Source of the DNA: Dictyostelium discoideum
Taxonomy: Eukaryota
Direction of reading: 5' to 3'
Assembly (NCBI GenBank): GCA_000004695.1
Contig: CH709168.1
Span: 1-5,151, forward strand
DNA length: 5,151 nucleotides
The notes under the pieces are model-generated. The model had not been told where the DNA came from and did no database searches. It saw only the letters and a list, made by a program, of their open reading frames with translations. Shown piece after piece: positions 1-5,151 of the stretch. The stretch's first letter is position 1, and each line of letters opens with the position of its first letter. A program made the position numbers and the translations under genes.

Positions 1-2
1 TA

Positions 3-461
3 ATGAATTTCCACTTGTTTTTATATTATCCAATTTATATAAAAAATTGGGGTGCACCAAAATACACTTCAGCTGAAACTTTTGAAGCACAATTATCAAG
101 AATTAAAAATTATTTAAATAATAATACAAATAATAGGGATGAACAATTTGAAAGGGTTACCAAATTAAACATGGTGAAATTTTTTAATTCAGTAGATAAA
201 TTAAAAAGTATTGAACCTGAAAGTACAGCATTAATTATTGGTAACAAAATAAAAAATCCAGATAATTTAGATAACATAAAAATTAAATTAGATTCATTAT
301 TTCAAAATTATAAAAATTTAACTTTTAACTCATCAATTAAAAATAATAAAGAAATATACAATGTTGGTGATGCCGTTGAAGTTGCATCATATAATGAACT
401 TTCAGGTAGATGGTCAGGTATTATCAATTCAATATCAATGATTGAAATGGATGATAACTAG
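3..461 (+). CDS. Hypothetical N/K-rich protein, 152 aa from the first ATG. It may be 5'-truncated, because the frame could be open upstream of the window start.
   Basis: Longest ORF in an AT-rich segment with yeast-like codon use. No recognisable motif and no similarity to the FLP N-terminal domain. The poly-N tract (NNNTNNRDEQ) is typical of AT-rich eukaryotic or plasmid proteins. Confidence 0.3.
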   Translation: MNFHLFLYYPIYIKNWGAPKYTSAETFEAQLSRIKNYLNNNTNNRDEQFERVTKLNMVKFFNSVDKLKSIEPESTALIIGNKIKNPDNLDNIKIKLDSLFQNYKNLTFNSSIKNNKEIYNVGDAVEVASYNELSGRWSGIINSISMIEMDDN

Positions 462-706
462 TAAAACATGAAATATTATTAAATTATTTTGACAAATATG
501 TTGGTGACCAATACCATTTTCTTTCAAATAAATTATTTTACATATGATAGTATTCTAAATATAGTTATACCAATTCAAATTGATGATACCAATTACCTTA
601 TAATTTACAAATACCATGATATATAATTATGACTGGTATTCACAAGTTGCTCCCTTCATCTGCAAAGTATAAAGAGATATAGGATGCAAATCAAGTATTC
701 AAGCAC

Positions 707-1307
707 TTGTCTACTATCAAAGTTATCCCCAAGTACATATACACTGCGCTATTAAACAAGACACTTGTACTCTTGAAAATGTTTGGTTTATCAAGATCAT
801 CAGACTTAGTGAAGTGGTCGTTCAAAGGTCTCATTATTACTACTGACTCAATCAAAGGTCCAGTTATCAATGCTAAAGAACAAAGAAGTGGTGTTGTTTC
901 AATCTTAGAATTAACATCGTTAGATGATACTAACTCTCAAGTATGTCCTGTTCGACCTTGCAACATACCTTAGAGCCTCTAAAGGAAGAAGAAAGCCCCA
1001 TTGGGGTGACTCTGTCTTTATTAAGAATGAGGGTGAACCGCTCCAAGTTAATGATATAAATTCAATTGTATTATCAACACTCTCAAGCTCCGGTATTGAT
1101 ACTAGAAAGTTCAAATCTCACTCTATCCGTTCCGCTATGGCTTCTCTGCTGTTGTTCAATAACGTTCCGTTCCATGTTGTCAAGAAGATGGGTCGCTGGA
1201 AATCAAACGATACTGTAGATACCTTCTACGATAAAAGAATCATTGGTGAAAAATCTGGTGGTATTTTCATTGATACTGTCGTTCAAATAAATAAATGTTA
1301 TTCATAA
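707..1307 (+). pseudogene. Tyrosine recombinase catalytic domain, FLP- or Crypton-like, interrupted by a +1 frameshift near 950-960 and lacking a proper ATG start.
   Basis: Translation gives GLSRSSDLVKWSFKG (box I Arg, compare FLP GRFSDIKNVDPKSFK), then SQVCPVR, and after the frame change LATYLRASKGRRKP...KSHSIRSAMASLLL (H-x-x-R), GRWKS (the G-x-W) and the nucleophile Tyr in DTFYDKR. The R...H..R...W...Y spacing of ~150 aa matches FLP R191-Y343. Frame 2 (707-973) and frame 0 (924-1307) overlap, so one base is missing or added near 950-960. The only possible starts are TTG at 707 or an ATG at 779, just before the catalytic Arg. Confidence 0.6.
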
Positions 1308-1321
1308 TATATATATATATT
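1308..1321. repeat. (TA)n dinucleotide microsatellite immediately after the recombinase stop codon.
   Basis: A tatatatatatat run read directly from the sequence. Confidence 0.8.
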
Positions 1322-1357
1322 TAATATAAAATATAATTTAATAAATTAAATTTTTAA

Positions 1358-1680
1358 TTCTCATTTAATACCAATTCACGTAGCCAACCTTCTCATAATG
1401 ACTCTGACACTGAGAATGAACAAAGTGATGATGAATCAAGTAACAATGTCGATGTTCCAACCGATTATCAATTATCCGATACCTTACTTGGTCAGTACAA
1501 ACATATGGTAAACAATCAAGGTTTACTCGTCAAAGAAGAATGTATCCTCAAGAAAGATGAGATATCCGAATTGAATAAAATATTCAATTTTCCATCTAAC
1601 ATCCAAGTGAATGTCGCTCCATTCGGTACACCTGAAGGTATTACTGTATCATTCAACGTCAAGAACAATGATACTGACTA
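1358..1680 (+). CDS. Acidic S/D/E-rich ORF fragment of 107 codons, open from the preceding stop, with no in-frame ATG until codon ~50. It is a possible C-terminal exon or a pseudogene.
   Basis: Open frame reading ...HNDSDTENEQSDDESSNNVDVPTDYQLSDTLLGQYKHMVNNQGLLVKEECILKKDEISELNKIFNFPSNIQVNVAPFGTPEGITVSFNVKNNDTD*. Codon use is coherent and yeast-like (TTA, GGT, CCA, GTC). A 37-codon ATG-initiated ORF lies in another frame at 1397-1510. Confidence 0.3.
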
Positions 1681-1735
1681 GTTATTAGTCAATGACAAGT
1701 GGTTGGTGAAAGGTTTACAGGTGGAGTTGTATTGA

Positions 1736-1777
1736 CCACCATGACCTTAGTCAAGTAGCGCATTGTGTCACGTAATT
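1736..1777. repeat. Left arm of a 42-bp inverted repeat. The inner 30 bp (1748-1777) are perfect.
   Basis: tagtcaagtagcgcattgtgtcacgtaatt is the exact reverse complement of 1979-2008. The match extends to 40/42 identity over 1736-1777 versus 1979-2020. Confidence 0.9.
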
Positions 1778-1978
1778 GGGATAAGATCAACAGCATTAAC
1801 AGGCTGGCCTGCCTTTGATGAGGCGTTAGGTAACGAGTACACATTTTCAGAAGTGATGGTCAGGTTCATACTACGCTCCGTTCGCGTTTGAACTTCAGGC
1901 TTAACGCAGAAGGTATATATAACGATTCTATTCATTTGAACTACGGTATTGTTGATCTTAATCGTGGGCGTGTATCCG

Positions 1979-2020
1979 AATTACGTGACACAATGCGCTA
2001 CTTGACTAGGGTCATGTTGG
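1979..2020. repeat. Right arm of the 42-bp inverted repeat. It encloses a 201-bp core (1778-1978).
   Basis: aattacgtgacacaatgcgctacttgacta is the reverse complement of the left arm. The whole element spans 1736-2020 (285 bp). Confidence 0.9.
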
Positions 2021-2030
2021 CTTAATTGAA

Positions 2031-2059
2031 AGAGGGGATGTACTACATCCTCTTTTTTT
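2031..2059 (+). terminator. Rho-independent terminator-like hairpin followed by a T7 run.
   Basis: agaggggatg tacta catcctct followed by ttttttt. The stem is ~10 bp with one G bulge or G-U pair. No A-tract precedes it, so it is unidirectional on the + strand. Confidence 0.5.
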
Positions 2060-2095
2060 GATCTATTGATATGTAAAGTTTTACACAGTACCGGA

Positions 2096-2101
2096 TATAA
2101 T
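2096..2101 (+). promoter_or_regulatory. Perfect sigma70 -10 hexamer TATAAT. The -35 is weak: GTAAAG at 17 bp, or TTTACA at only 10 bp spacing.
   Basis: Hexamer read from the sequence. No convincing -35 is present, so this is speculative. Confidence 0.2.
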
Positions 2102-2136
2102 GTGTAGGGATAACCTCTCTGCATGCAAGTACTCCA

Positions 2137-2559
2137 AAAGATTAAAATTATTATGACGAAGATTAACACCCTCATTAAGGGTATGGCTTGACCAGAACAC
2201 ATGTTATCCCCTTATTTTTCTTTTAAGTCAATGGAGGAATGTCATGCCATGTAAATCTTTTGATTTTGGTAACTGTACAAAACGCACTGCAGCGGCCGAT
2301 AAAGCCAAGCGAGATGCTAATCCAATTCTTCGTACTCAGTTACTGAAGAAGATTCGTTAATGACTGATCGGCAAGCCAGCATCTCCAGAATGGTAGAACT
2401 GGATCTCTTGGTAGATCAGCATTAAAAGCCAAAAGACACAACTTAACCCAGAACATATTGCCATGATAATCGAACTGCTTGGTGAGGGTAATTGCAGAAA
2501 TGCTTAATATCGATAGATCAAAAATATTCCGTTATCGTAAAGAGAACGGTATCGTATAG
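2137..2559 (+). pseudogene. Decayed serine recombinase of the DNA invertase / resolvase family (Hin/Gin/Cin-like). It carries several frameshifts and stops, and the N-terminal catalytic Ser region is missing.
   Basis: Frame 0, 2157-2360: TRLTPSLRVWLDQNTCYPLIFLLSQWRNVMPCKSFDFGNCTKRTAAADKAKRD..., compare Gin [36 protein letters not shown]. Frame 1: NGRTGSLGRSALKAKRHNLTQ, compare NKGRIGGRPPKLTKAE. Frames 2 and 1: IIELLGEGNC / RVIAEMLNIDRSKIFRYRKENGIV*, the typical C-terminal HTH ending ...IA..L.IsRSTiYRY. The VW motif at 2181 to the C-terminal stop at 2559 is 378 nt; the equivalent distance in Gin is ~375 nt. The only intact piece is a 38-codon ORF at 2244-2360 with a GGAGG Shine-Dalgarno site at 2233-2237. 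Confidence 0.5.
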
Positions 2560-2562
2560 CTC

Positions 2563-2595
2563 AAAAAGACCAGCCAATAACACTGGTCTTTTTTG
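2563..2595 (+). terminator. Intrinsic terminator immediately after the invertase-remnant stop codon.
   Basis: aaaAGACCAG ccaataaca CTGGTCTttttt. A 7-9 bp stem, 9-nt loop and T5 tail, preceded by an A-run, so it could act on both strands. Confidence 0.6.
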
Positions 2596-2754
2596 TAATC
2601 ACCAAACAATGATATCCGTTGCAGTTTTCCTGGTAGGAACTCTAAGACAACCTAAGTTCAATCAGTAGGGGTTAACCAGACCTTTTGGTGAAGTGTTAGT
2701 ATTGACTGTAATAGCTATAGAGCTACGTGAAATTCGAATGGGTGTCACCCAATT

Positions 2755-2844
2755 GGAGAATTGTCCGAGTGGTTCAAGGTAACGGTCTTGAAAACCGTCG
2801 GGCGGGAAACCGCTCCTAGAGTTCGAATCTCTAATTCTCTGCCA
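2755..2844 (+). tRNA. tRNA-Ser, anticodon UGA, type II with a long variable arm and genomically encoded CCA.
   Basis: Acceptor GGAGAAT/ATTCTCT, then G and CCA. Anticodon stem ACGGT/ACCGT with loop CTTGAAA. Perfect T-arm TAGAG-TTCGAAT-CTCTA. GGTCTTGAAAACCG and GAGTTCGAATCTCT are near-identical to E. coli serT. Positions 1-72 form a G-U pair and 10-25 a U-U pair, both slightly unusual. Confidence 0.85.
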
Positions 2845-2975
2845 ATTAAGATCTAAAGAAATCGCTATACGGTCACGAACGGGGATCGATAAAAGCCTAA
2901 GAGTGAAAGCCTCTACCGTTCTCTCAAACAGGGTTCAGCACTCTGTCTATAACGTATAAAGGAAAAGGAAAGATA

Positions 2976-3263
2976 ATGGCTACTAAGATTTCAATTACCC
3001 GTGCATTGGCCACAGTTAAATCCATGTCCAACGGTCTGATGCTTATTTCACTAACTCGCGGTACTGATGAGTTCGCCCAAGAAGCTGGTTTCAATGATTC
3101 CGTTGGGGCGGTTTCTGATGCGATCAAAGAAAACTACCAGGGTTTACAAGATATCATTCGTGTGCATGAAGATATCCTTGCTAAAGTGATCTTGTCCAAC
3201 GATACTACGCTTATTACCGTAGCTGGCAAAGAATACTGTGTGGTGTATTCTTTGCCACGATAG
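2976..3263 (+). CDS. Hypothetical protein, 95 aa.
   Basis: ATG preceded by AAGGAAAAGGAAAG (Shine-Dalgarno-like). E. coli-like codon usage (CGT, GGT, CTG, AAA, GAA). No recognisable motif. Confidence 0.5.
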   Translation: MATKISITRALATVKSMSNGLMLISLTRGTDEFAQEAGFNDSVGAVSDAIKENYQGLQDIIRVHEDILAKVILSNDTTLITVAGKEYCVVYSLPR

Positions 3264-3270
3264 GGAATCG

Positions 3271-3543
3271 CTAATCTGGGAATTCATCACGACGCATTAC
3301 ATCAGAAGAGACGTTCTGAACAAACACGGTAATCTGTGCAATTAAGTAATTGCTTACAACAGCGAGTTCGTCTTTGGCAGCTTTCAGACCAAAGATAACC
3401 GACTCACCCGTAATACATTCTGCATCAGCAAAAGTCAATGCGGTAGCAATTATTTGTACGGCAGATGCACCATTATACTCCTCAAGTGACGAAACCACAG
3501 AGGCAGGGTTAACTTCAAGTTGGCCAATTTCAATAGCTGCCAT
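3271..3543 (-). CDS. Hypothetical protein, 90 aa, convergent with the previous ORF across a 7-bp gap.
   Basis: Coherent codon usage. The overlapping + strand ORF (3350-3631) is S/A/T-rich and low-complexity, so the minus frame is preferred. The ribosome binding site is weak. Confidence 0.4.
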   Translation of the reverse strand: MAAIEIGQLEVNPASVVSSLEEYNGASAVQIIATALTFADAECITGESVIFGLKAAKDELAVVSNYLIAQITVFVQNVSSDVMRRDEFPD

Positions 3544-3656
3544 AACTCTAGCCTATAACTCTTGTGCTTTTGTTTCGTTCATGGATGTACGCACAAAAAG
3601 CAAATTTAAATTTAATTTAAAGCGAATTTAAAGTCCTGTACAAAAGCAATTTTTAA

Positions 3657-3734
3657 GGTAATTTTAAAGGTAATTTTTAAGGTTACTTTAAAACCACCTT
3701 ATAAATTACCTTTATAATTACCTTAGAAATTAAC
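3657..3734. repeat. Array of a 12-bp motif, three direct copies followed by three inverted copies. Together with flanking AAAGCAATT half-sites it forms a ~110-bp imperfect palindrome (~3640-3752).
   Basis: Direct copies: GGTAATTTTAAA, GGTAATTTTTAA, GGTTACTTTAAA. Centre: aCCACC. Inverted copies: TTATAAATTACC, TTTATAATTACC, TTAGAAATTAAC. The latter are reverse complements of the same motif. Confidence 0.75.
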
Positions 3735-3828
3735 TTTTTAATTGCTTTAAAAGCGAGGTCCTGAGTTCGAAGCCGTTATTTAACGGATAAATTTTATAAA
3801 AATTTTTTTTGAATTTTTTGAAAATTTA

Positions 3829-3870
3829 CCAAAAGGGTAGTCTCATCAATCAAAGGGTAGTCTCATCAAC
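3829..3870. repeat. Two tandem 20-21 bp direct repeats (iteron-like).
   Basis: caAAAGGGTAGTCTCATCAAt immediately followed by cAAAGGGTAGTCTCATCAAc. A 7-bp inverted repeat TCATCAA...TTGATGA follows at 3864-3897. Confidence 0.8.
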
Positions 3871-3998
3871 CATTACACCATTTGATTGCTTTGATGATAA
3901 TTTAAAAATGATAGAATATTTTATCCCCATTTTTTTGATCTAAAATTAGATGTTTTTTATTAAAAACCTTAAATTTATATTTAAAGGAAATTTTAATT

Positions 3999-4042
3999 CA
4001 CTTTAAATCTACTTTAAATCAACTTTAAATCCTCTTTAAAAT
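3999..4042. repeat. Four tandem 10-12 bp units with a CTTTAAAT core, phased at the helical repeat.
   Basis: cactttaaat, ctactttaaat, caactttaaat, cctctttaaaat. Similar TATCTTAAAA(A)T units occur at 4075-4097. Confidence 0.7.
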
Positions 4043-4056
4043 TATTTTAAAATAAT
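4041..4056. repeat. 16-bp perfect palindrome ATTATTTTAAAATAAT.
   Basis: The sequence equals its own reverse complement. Confidence 0.85.
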
Positions 4057-4162
4057 TTTTAAAGGCATTTTTAAATATCTTAAAATTATCTTAAAAATTA
4101 CCTTGAAAATGAATTTTTTAAACCCGGCTTTAAATTCAATTTAATTCCAATTTAAATCAACT

Positions 4163-4184
4163 TTGCTTTAAATTTGCTTTAAAT
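4163..4184. repeat. Tandem duplication of the 11-mer TTGCTTTAAAT.
   Basis: ttgctttaaat followed directly by ttgctttaaat. Confidence 0.8.
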
Positions 4185-4249
4185 GTGGATTTTTCTGTGC
4201 TGCACATGCACATAATGCATTAGGCGAGAAACGCGATATTGTCAAAGCT

Positions 4250-4453
4250 TTGAAAGCCAACTACGAATCGATATCTCGTCACAACGGTAACTCCAATTTT
4301 GACCAGCGTGAAAATACCGCGCGCACCGAAGCATTCAACGGTACTAAGAAAGCCGATGAAGCTTCCATTGCTGTGTTCGTTAATCCAGTTATCGAACGTT
4401 ATCAGCCAGGCGTGCTGTATCCGCTGGAGATCAGCAAAGTAATCAAGCAGTAG
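4250..4453 (+). CDS. Hypothetical protein, TTG start per the ORF track. The frame is open from 4172 and resumes after the TAG at 4451 for 29 more codons, to 4543.
   Basis: E. coli-like codon usage (CTG, CGT, CCG, GGT). No ATG anywhere in frame from 4172. The TAG at 4451-4453 is followed in frame by EKEILDFEANIDYALTESTKIEIVDGVVV*. Confidence 0.4.
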   Translation: MKANYESISRHNGNSNFDQRENTARTEAFNGTKKADEASIAVFVNPVIERYQPGVLYPLEISKVIKQ

Positions 4454-4776
4454 GAAAAAGAGATTCTGGATTTCGAAGCCAACATTGATTACGCGTTAAC
4501 TGAATCTACCAAAATCGAAATTGTAGATGGTGTGGTAGTTTAATTAAATTAAAAAGCTTGTCTTCGTTTGACGAATAGTCGAACACCGCCCTTGGGAGGT
4601 TAAACCACCAGCTCACTATATACACGCTGTGGGTCGATGGTTCGAGTCATTTCTGTGGAAACACAGTAGCTCGGTCGGTTATAGCAATAGTCAAAACATT
4701 AAATAAATAACACCTAGCATGATCCAAATTACAGAATGTGGTATTCGATATCACCACGTCCGTAAGATTAGTATAT

Positions 4777-4807
4777 AGGATGGTTTTACCCCTCCTGGTT
4801 TTATTTT
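4777..4807 (+). terminator. Weak terminator-like hairpin followed by a T-rich tail.
   Basis: AGGATGG ttttacc CCTCCT ggttttatttt. The stem is imperfect and not associated with any upstream ORF. Confidence 0.2.
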
Positions 4808-5057
4808 GAGATGAATGTCCGTCATTAGGCACCCTTAATAGCGGAAGGCGGTGAATTGGAGACTTGGGACGTGGCTGAAAGTATGCCAGCAAATAACCGA
4901 CGCTTACACTTTGGTGTAAGTAAACCACAATCAACCGCGTAGCATCTAAAAATAAAAGAACAATGACAGAAGCACTTCCGATATTACGTGGTTGGGTGTT
5001 GTAGAAGTCTGACGGTCAACCCCGCCATCGGTCACCTATTAAGAGGATTAGTTTACC

Positions 5058-5151
5058 ATGGAAATTCCAAAAAGCTATGTGGCAACTGATTTTAAATATG
5101 TTAACAACCAACCTTATGTGCGTGGTCAGCGTGTATTAATAATAATGCCTA
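5058..5151 (+). CDS. 5' part of an ORF running off the window (MEIPKSYVATDFKYVNNQPYVRGQRVLIIMP...).
   Basis: ATG preceded by AAGAGGA ~11 nt upstream. The frame is open to the window end. Confidence 0.4.
   Translation, partial: MEIPKSYVATDFKYVNNQPYVRGQRVLIIMP

Follow-up and report, generated by a model that had tools for sequence, protein, structure and literature searches.

Decaying prokaryotic DNA inside eukaryotic nuclei is not without precedent: fragments of Wolbachia and of phage WO occur in insect and nematode chromosomes. In Dictyostelium discoideum, the chromosome ends carry clusters of the retrotransposon DIRS-1 that are regarded as centromeres (PMC2665215, PMC3950715, PMC12745789). 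Here we describe a 5,151-nt stretch of D. discoideum DNA (assembly GCA_000004695.1, contig CH709168.1, positions 1 to 5,151 of the forward strand; hereafter the window, meaning the whole stretch analysed) in which features of both appear together. We place at roughly 85% the probability that the window is a genuine nuclear locus of DIRS-1-rich, centromere-type repeats that contains a dead fragment of a jumbo phage and has been reworked by later transposon activity.

Like the Wolbachia and phage WO inserts, the locus places prokaryote-type DNA in a nuclear chromosome, where it is largely non-functional, retains the composition of its donor and decays as pseudogenes. It differs from them in the donor, a virulent-type jumbo phage of free-living Enterobacterales rather than an endosymbiont or prophage, in the likely route, which would be feeding rather than germline co-residence, and in the site, an amoeba retrotransposon cluster. 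Like the DIRS-1 centromere clusters, it consists of DIRS-1 copies that are truncated and nested, have 91-96% identity to complete elements and are mixed with other transposons. The position is comparable too: a chromosome-scale contig ends here, and the first genes of AX4 chromosome 1 are close by. Unlike those clusters as described, it has a foreign DNA component, which is apparently undescribed there: the paper on D. discoideum centromere clusters does not mention phage or the word horizontal, and a literature search whose coverage excluded most subscription journals found no earlier account of phage DNA in the repeat clusters of Dictyostelium. The locus adds to the known cases of prokaryote or phage DNA decaying in a eukaryotic nucleus; its donor is unusual, its evolutionary record is tidy, and the sequence has been public since the AX4 genome.

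Is the window a real locus? An assembly made de novo from Nanopore and Illumina reads, GCA_054883475.1 (PMC12745789), contains it whole: the entire window aligns colinearly with positions 7026-12185 of L001, our label for the last 12.3 kb of a 4.88-Mb contig; identity is 99.77%, and the differences are three substitutions and an indel of 9 bp. Judged by its N50 and contig sizes, that assembly is probably of strain AX2-214. The window itself is an unplaced AX4 contig: the gene model DDB_G0294310, which is recorded on a contig of exactly 5151 bp, is reproduced exactly when the window is read with splicing. Because all junctions of the window are reproduced in an independent long-read assembly, an assembly chimera and an engineered construct, both of which the first-pass annotation had offered as explanations, are excluded. 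At the assembly level the blocks form one contiguous locus of a single organism; the chimera readings fall with this, but the mosaic stands, as does the further suggestion of horizontal transfer into a mobile-element graveyard, which is supported by phage homology and by the host transposons that flank and interrupt the phage DNA. Two other D. discoideum loci, L006 (a 40-kb contig) and a third locus, L002, were compared with the window. Its features are as follows (GC, guanine plus cytosine; ORF, open reading frame; tRNA, transfer RNA; TIR, terminal inverted repeat).

1-624, plus strand: fragment of an unnamed Dictyostelium repeat with copies in L001, L002 and L006; GC 22.3%.
625-1352, plus strand: DIRS-1 fragment, 3' part of the tyrosine recombinase ORF (Pfam Phage_integrase, E = 6e-9); GC 34.2%.
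1358-1683, plus strand: second DIRS-1 fragment, 5' ORF region, 96% identical to L001 1392-1717; GC 35.3%.
1684-3263, plus strand: phage-derived block, part 1, with CGN arginine codons and a colinear paralog in L006; GC 41.2%.
1736-1783 and 1973-2020: long inverted repeat of 48 nt, 94% complementary, enclosing 189 nt.
2028-2058: terminator hairpin with T-run (-15.9 kcal/mol, z = -5.5).
2244-2360, plus strand: small ORF with a GGAGG site.
About 2440-2560: frameshifted relic of a helix-turn-helix gene (HTH_29, E = 0.003, a weak match).
2563-2593: terminator hairpin with T-run (-13.3 kcal/mol, z = -4.3).
2755-2844, plus strand: tRNA-Ser gene of 90 nt, anticodon TGA, called by ARAGORN, with a long variable arm and an encoded CCA (it ends GCCA).
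2976-3263, plus strand: N-terminal half of a virion gene (phrog_1491 positions 1-95 of 211, E = 4e-16).
3225-3256, no strand: 32-nt palindrome GGCAAAGAATACTGTGTGGTGTATTCTTTGCC, a perfect 12 + 12 nt around TGTGTGGT.
3264-3596, minus strand: 333-bp filler of phage-like composition with a minus-strand ORF relic (3271-3590) interrupted by an in-frame TAG; GC 42.6%.
3597-4202, no strand: AT-rich non-autonomous TIR element of 606 bp, inside the phage virion gene; GC 21.9%.
4203-4540, plus strand: C-terminal half of the virion gene (phrog_1491 positions 102-207 of 211, E = 3e-16, match 4202-4540).
4541-5151, plus strand: phage-derived block, part 3, intergenic and then the start, at 5058, of a 55-amino-acid ORF; GC of 4203-5151, 41.9%.

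The phage-derived DNA contains a single virion gene whose two halves, separated by about 940 bp, match phrog_1491, a family of 211 positions annotated as 'tail fiber protein'. When the halves are joined, 97% of the protein aligns with gp199 of Erwinia phage Ea35-70 at 44% identity (tblastn), and 605 phage records are hit, mostly those of large Salmonella, Escherichia, Klebsiella and Erwinia phages; among 5.8 billion proteins the joined protein matches Dictyostelium gene models only. Gene order adds to this. In Erwinia phage AH06, genes 217, 218 and 219 are the virion gene, a small ORF and a P-loop gene, all on one strand and in the same order as here, and the arrangement recurs in pEa_SNUABM_37 and in Salmonella phage SA002. 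The D. discoideum P-loop gene is a relic (phrog_2586, E = 1.3e-10) that follows the 55-amino-acid ORF just beyond the window; the stretches that show this part of the block are L001 12083-12330 and L006 11738-12425. The block terminates at about position 12425 of L006, where a DIRS-1 terminus begins, which gives a contiguous phage piece of ~3.5 kb.

The tRNA-Ser gene scores 48.6 bits against the Rfam tRNA model (gathering score, 29) and has 76-84% identity to its counterparts in large phages; judged by sequence, it is of bacterial or phage type. It lies 130 bp upstream of the virion gene, and in Ea35-70 a tRNA gene lies ~0.7 kb upstream of the homologue. Motifs resembling Shine-Dalgarno sites, of the GGAGG type, precede the ATGs at 2244, 2976 and 5058. 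The two terminators were found by direct folding, a simple consensus scan having missed both. The long inverted repeat falls in a predicted hairpin of ~290 nt (1730-2026; -143.8 kcal/mol, z = -10.8), which has a terminator directly after it and is kept in the L006 paralog.

The closest donor type is an Agricanvirus-type jumbo phage of Enterobacterales, Agricanvirus belonging to Chimalliviridae, with the family assignment drawn from best hits only. Ea35-70 and AH06, and the related pEa_SNUABM_37 and SA002, have the phrog_1491 gene, small ORF and phrog_2586 P-loop gene of the locus in identical order and orientation, together with the upstream tRNA. They differ from it in that protein identity is only 42-51% and that what Dictyostelium carries is a pseudogenised, interrupted fragment. 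The actual donor belongs to an unsampled phage lineage. Megablast of the phage-like blocks returned no match in phages, distant blastn of 1690-3300 against phages recovered the tRNA alone, and tblastn of the 55-amino-acid ORF against phages found no match. Scans of viral contigs with exact patterns and peptide patterns were likewise negative, exact-protein look-ups of the window ORFs returned no record, Pfam has no family for the phage-like ORFs, and 1684-3263 shows no homology to Dictyostelium transposons.

Related DNA was also found outside these loci. L004 and L005 are Logan contigs from SRR26869268 and SRR26869267. L004 holds 1.8 kb (1-1845) of phage-like DNA with 41-48% GC, which ends in a DIRS-1 terminus; phage-like DNA also adjoins DIRS-1 termini in L002 and L006. 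Within L004 is a frameshifted virion or baseplate relic (phrog_3248) that is 44-51% identical to proteins of the same Agricanvirus-type phages, in whose genomes its homologue lies ~75 kb from the virion gene. Distant blastn of L004 against phages found no match, and neither chimallin, multisubunit RNA polymerases nor a major capsid protein is encoded in L004 or in the ~3.5-kb piece. L005, a shorter contig, was reported in seven samples.

The first-pass annotation had described the window as a sharp mosaic of composition and codon usage, and block GC and codon counts bear this out. GC rises only modestly from the DIRS-1 fragments (34-35%) to the phage-like block (41-43%), and the codon contrast is stronger. 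AGA and AGG supply 11 of 15 arginine codons in the left-hand frames, CGN 17 of 18 in the phage-like frames; CAA and CAG for glutamine stand at 12:1 and 6:8, and GC at third codon positions is 0.27 and 0.37, respectively. The observed-to-expected CpG ratio in 1684-3263 is 0.91. The transitions are as abrupt as proposed: alignment with L001 and L006 resolves homology breakpoints to the single base, at 1683/1684, 3596/3597 and 4202/4203. The (TA)n tract, the tRNA with its encoded CCA, the terminators, the Shine-Dalgarno-like motifs and the A/T repeat block are all present. Other parts of the description need amending. The codons on the left do differ, but they are those of Dictyostelium transposons and not, as had been thought, yeast-style. 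The enterobacterial style on the right is real, with a phage of enterobacteria and not a bacterial chromosome as its source. The left block, taken as one unit, comprises three nested fragments, and 3264-3596 is distinct from the rest of the phage block. The mosaic thus arises from foreign DNA that remains un-ameliorated (41-43% GC) between AT-rich host repeats (22-35% GC).

Is any of the phage DNA still functional? Colinear alignment of L006 with the window gives 96.6% identity over 1287-2409, 95.5% over 2408-3236 and 96.0% over 3597-5151. The two copies share the junction at 1683/1684, the TIR element inside the virion gene and, in the C-terminal half of that gene, an in-frame TAG at 4451-4453; homology of the N-terminal half to the paralogs stops at 3236. 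An L006-type gene copy is annotated on AX4 chromosome 1 as DDB_G0267286. L002 carries a shorter relic of the phage gene that is free of the insertion, is ~8% divergent and has TTG in place of the TAG. Over the coding relics, the window and L006 differ at 14 non-synonymous and 6 synonymous sites (pN, the proportion of non-synonymous differences, 0.027; pS, the synonymous counterpart, 0.040). L006 has more stops and indels in these relics than the window, and the anticodon of its tRNA copy (9780-9869) reads TAA for TGA, so that ARAGORN calls a tRNA-Leu; this change is a sign of neutral drift. The split and prematurely stopped virion gene, the helix-turn-helix frameshift, the stops, indels and altered anticodon of the paralog and the near-neutral pN/pS together point to phage genes that are non-functional and decaying near-neutrally. 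Substitution divergence between paralogs is 2-2.7%, plus indels, and with the ~8% divergence of L002 it indicates an event much older than laboratory history.

Beside the L002 relic, at 10505-11010, lies further GC-rich DNA with an ORF starting MDVKFSTLPAAQTLTGQEIV, which has no match in phages (tblastn) or in PHROGs. This unmatched DNA suggests that the foreign DNA underwent a different rearrangement in the L002 copy.

We also considered whether the in-frame TAGs (at 680, at 4451 and in the minus-strand ORF) might be recoded, as in a phage with an alternative code. This was rejected: the intact DIRS-1 has TGG and L002 has TTG at the corresponding positions, and the frameshifts, the TAA and TGA stops and the additional stops in the L006 paralog count further against recoding.

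The left block, 1-1683, is host transposon debris. Its first fragment (1-624) is 94% identical to L002 14978-15616 and 93.6% identical to L006 16386-17020, and the ORF at 3-461 is the C-terminal part of a 195-amino-acid ORF found at L001 6899-7486. Where it is longer, at L001 6280-7486, this unnamed repeat has ORFs of 120, 110 and 195 amino acids, and several copies occur in DIRS-1-rich loci. It matches no Pfam family and is possibly the remnant of a DNA transposon. The second fragment (625-1352) is 91% identical in DNA to full-length DIRS-1, at L001 4421-5139, and its recombinase relic (625-1307) is 92% identical in amino acids to D. discoideum DIRS-1 proteins. The ORF is disrupted by a TGG-to-TAG change at 680-682, where DIRS-1 proteins read KEIWDAN and the window KEI*DAN, and by a frameshift near 958-963. 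This fragment terminates in the 3' AT-rich region of DIRS-1, with (TA)n at 1307-1328. The third (1358-1683), an exon of DDB_G0294310, is cut at an internal DIRS-1 position, exactly where the phage-like DNA starts. The window therefore has a DIRS-type tyrosine recombinase but, instead of a complete element, two truncated fragments; a complete one, whose inverted terminal repeats measure 315 nt, is found a short way upstream at L001 793-5518.

The A/T block that interrupts the virion gene is a host non-autonomous DNA transposon, similar to a miniature inverted-repeat transposable element (MITE), which jumped into the phage gene. Its terminal inverted repeats lie at 3595-3629 and 4159-4193, A/T repeats with an 11-12-bp period run through it, and a 20-bp direct repeat, AAAGGGTAGTCTCATCAAYC, occurs in tandem at 3832-3871; no ORF with a family match was found. 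The left end in the window copy has a deletion of ~19 bp. Another copy lies at L001 653-795 and 5579-6042, divided by the full-length DIRS-1, and L006 has an extra one at 8669-9383, at the point that corresponds to window 2409. Comparison of this filled site with the empty site in the window shows that 2 bp of target, TT, were duplicated, and defines ends of CACAG...CTGTG. In elements of the CACTA/EnSpm type, the termini start with CAC and target duplications measure 2-3 bp. The element resembles MITEs and CACTA/EnSpm elements in its CACAG-initial TIRs, absence of an ORF, multiple copies and 2-bp target duplication; assignment to this superfamily is a resemblance only, with no linked transposase identified. 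Inside the element, at 3763-3774, is a motif resembling a tRNA B box, GAGTTCGAAGCC, and the L006 copy has an additional motif of the GGGATTCGATCCCCC type at the corresponding place. Rfam matches of mir-548 type at 3652-3727 fall far below the gathering score and were dismissed as reflections of AT-rich inverted repeats.

The window copy differs from its paralogs at one further point. The palindrome at 3225-3256 marks where it diverges from L006 and L002, and the 333-bp filler lies right behind it. The filler is absent from both paralogs: in L006, position 10261 joins 10290, and the equivalent of window 3237-3596 is missing. Pieces of the filler are 95-98% identical, in scrambled order, to L004 1065-1465, and neither the filler nor its minus-strand ORF has a phage (tblastn) or family match. 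The palindrome, which stands beside the damaged left end of the TIR element, is probably the scar of fold-back (hairpin) repair, and the filler may have been captured during that repair.

The eukaryotic gene models published for this locus are annotation artefacts. Models of the type of DDB_G0294310, DDB_G0294314 (the second AX4 model in the window, which covers the virion gene) and ACTFIT_003263 (L001 10001-11478) either join DIRS-1 fragments or splice the virion-gene halves through the antisense strand of the 333-bp filler. In strain AX4, DDB_G0294314, DDB_G0267286 and the phage part of the neighbouring models are such artefacts on phage pseudogenes, and ACTFIT_003263, ACTFIT_001916 and ACTFIT_001947, which are AX2-type models, are artefacts of the same kind.

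How might the mosaic have formed? We suggest that phage DNA, from a virion or from an infected bacterium eaten by the bacterivorous amoeba, reached the nucleus, where DNA of an unsampled Agricanvirus-like donor would have been ligated into chromosomal repeat DNA. The later steps are recorded in the sequence itself. Host transposons have acted on the phage DNA: a DIRS-1 fragment abuts its left side, and the 606-bp TIR element jumped into the virion gene. The window copy gained its 333-bp filler, behind the palindromic scar, in another rearrangement, and the entire mosaic was segmentally duplicated. The pieces recovered may also be scattered remains of a much larger integration into a centromeric DIRS-1 array of an ancestor of D. 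discoideum, possibly of a large part of a ~270-kb genome of a nucleus-forming, Chimalliviridae-like phage. The ~3.5-kb block, the 1.8-kb L004 fragment and the unmatched GC-rich DNA beside the L002 relic are compatible with this, although we hold the idea tentatively and think it doubtful on present evidence.

Other origins for such a mixture deserve weighing. In the window, a short contig left unplaced by the 2005 shotgun assembly, repeats sit beside foreign-looking DNA, as would result had AX4 Sanger reads from DIRS-1 been joined to contaminating phage or bacterial DNA during cloning or assembly. With every junction recovered inside a 4.88-Mb contig and shared by diverged paralogs, with Dictyostelium-specific transposons lodged in the phage genes and flanked by a target-site duplication, and with no DNA-level match (megablast) to plasmids, E. 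coli genomes or sequenced phages, such a chimera is extremely unlikely. Debris of a transformation vector or a shuttle-vector-like construct, integrated in the axenic lineage, would also set eukaryote-type beside enterobacteria-type sequence, and the two strains that confirm the locus are laboratory strains with a common parent. We give this reading practically no chance: megablast of 1684-5151 returned no match among 72,556 plasmids or all complete E. coli genomes, the window contains neither a replication-origin nor a marker-gene family, and what it does encode, jumbo-phage virion and hypothetical genes, reaches only 44% identity to any known phage. Moreover, the divergence of the copies, with their indels and separate transposon insertions, is far too great for the decades that the strains have existed.

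A different question is whether the donor was a bacterial chromosome, or that of an endosymbiont, with a prophage or phage remnant, and not phage DNA directly. Amoebae harbour bacterial symbionts, Chlamydiae symbionts have been reported in wild Dictyostelium, and much of the block is unmatched, though only phage-type genes were recognised in it. All of these recognisable genes are jumbo-phage genes in jumbo-phage order, no bacterial housekeeping gene occurs in the block, and no closer homologue from bacteria turned up among 5.8 billion proteins. The nearest relatives belong to Chimalliviridae, which to our knowledge are virulent phages not known to lysogenise. A bacterial donor is accordingly unlikely. 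Nor do we favour domestication, in which the tRNA-Ser or B-box-like motifs would recruit TFIIIC and serve the centromere or a boundary, or the ORFs would be expressed. The intact tRNA of the window copy, the retention of the block in several copies and the gene models called in two annotations might be taken to suggest it, but the anticodon of the paralog has mutated, the ORFs contain stops and frameshifts and differ near-neutrally between copies, the gene models are spliced artefacts that run through the antisense filler, and copy number is accounted for by segmental duplication of the surrounding repeats. We regard domestication as very unlikely.

Several points do weigh against a genuine locus with a dead jumbo-phage fragment as we describe it. 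The confirming assembly comes from another DNA preparation, another technology and another decade, but it does not represent an independent wild isolate, as we take AX2 and AX4 both to derive from the single wild isolate NC4. In protein searches, the phage-like gene models come from NC4-derived strains only, and presence in wild isolates is thus unproven. Support for the junctions is at the assembly level. A close donor was not found: the best phage match has 44% amino-acid identity, and nucleotide matches are limited to the tRNA. We infer the uptake route, and the centromeric location follows from DIRS-1 density, the contig-end position and low chromosome 1 gene numbers.

We conclude that the mosaic consists of nested transposons and one horizontally acquired segment, and is neither an artefact nor engineered. 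It provides a junction-resolved case of virulent-type jumbo-phage DNA of enterobacteria in the nuclear genome of a bacterivorous amoeba, with internal controls in its paralogs, its empty and filled transposon site and its neutral decay. The relic samples an otherwise unsampled phage lineage and is convenient as a neutral marker with which to date the dynamics of DIRS-1 clusters. If the larger integration were real, the locus would record direct transfer from a virulent phage to a eukaryote via bacterivory, kept and amplified within a functional centromere and datable across isolates. The findings support the view that a diet of bacteria brings phage DNA into contact with eukaryotic nuclei, and they suggest that repeat-rich, centromere-type regions tolerate and preserve it.

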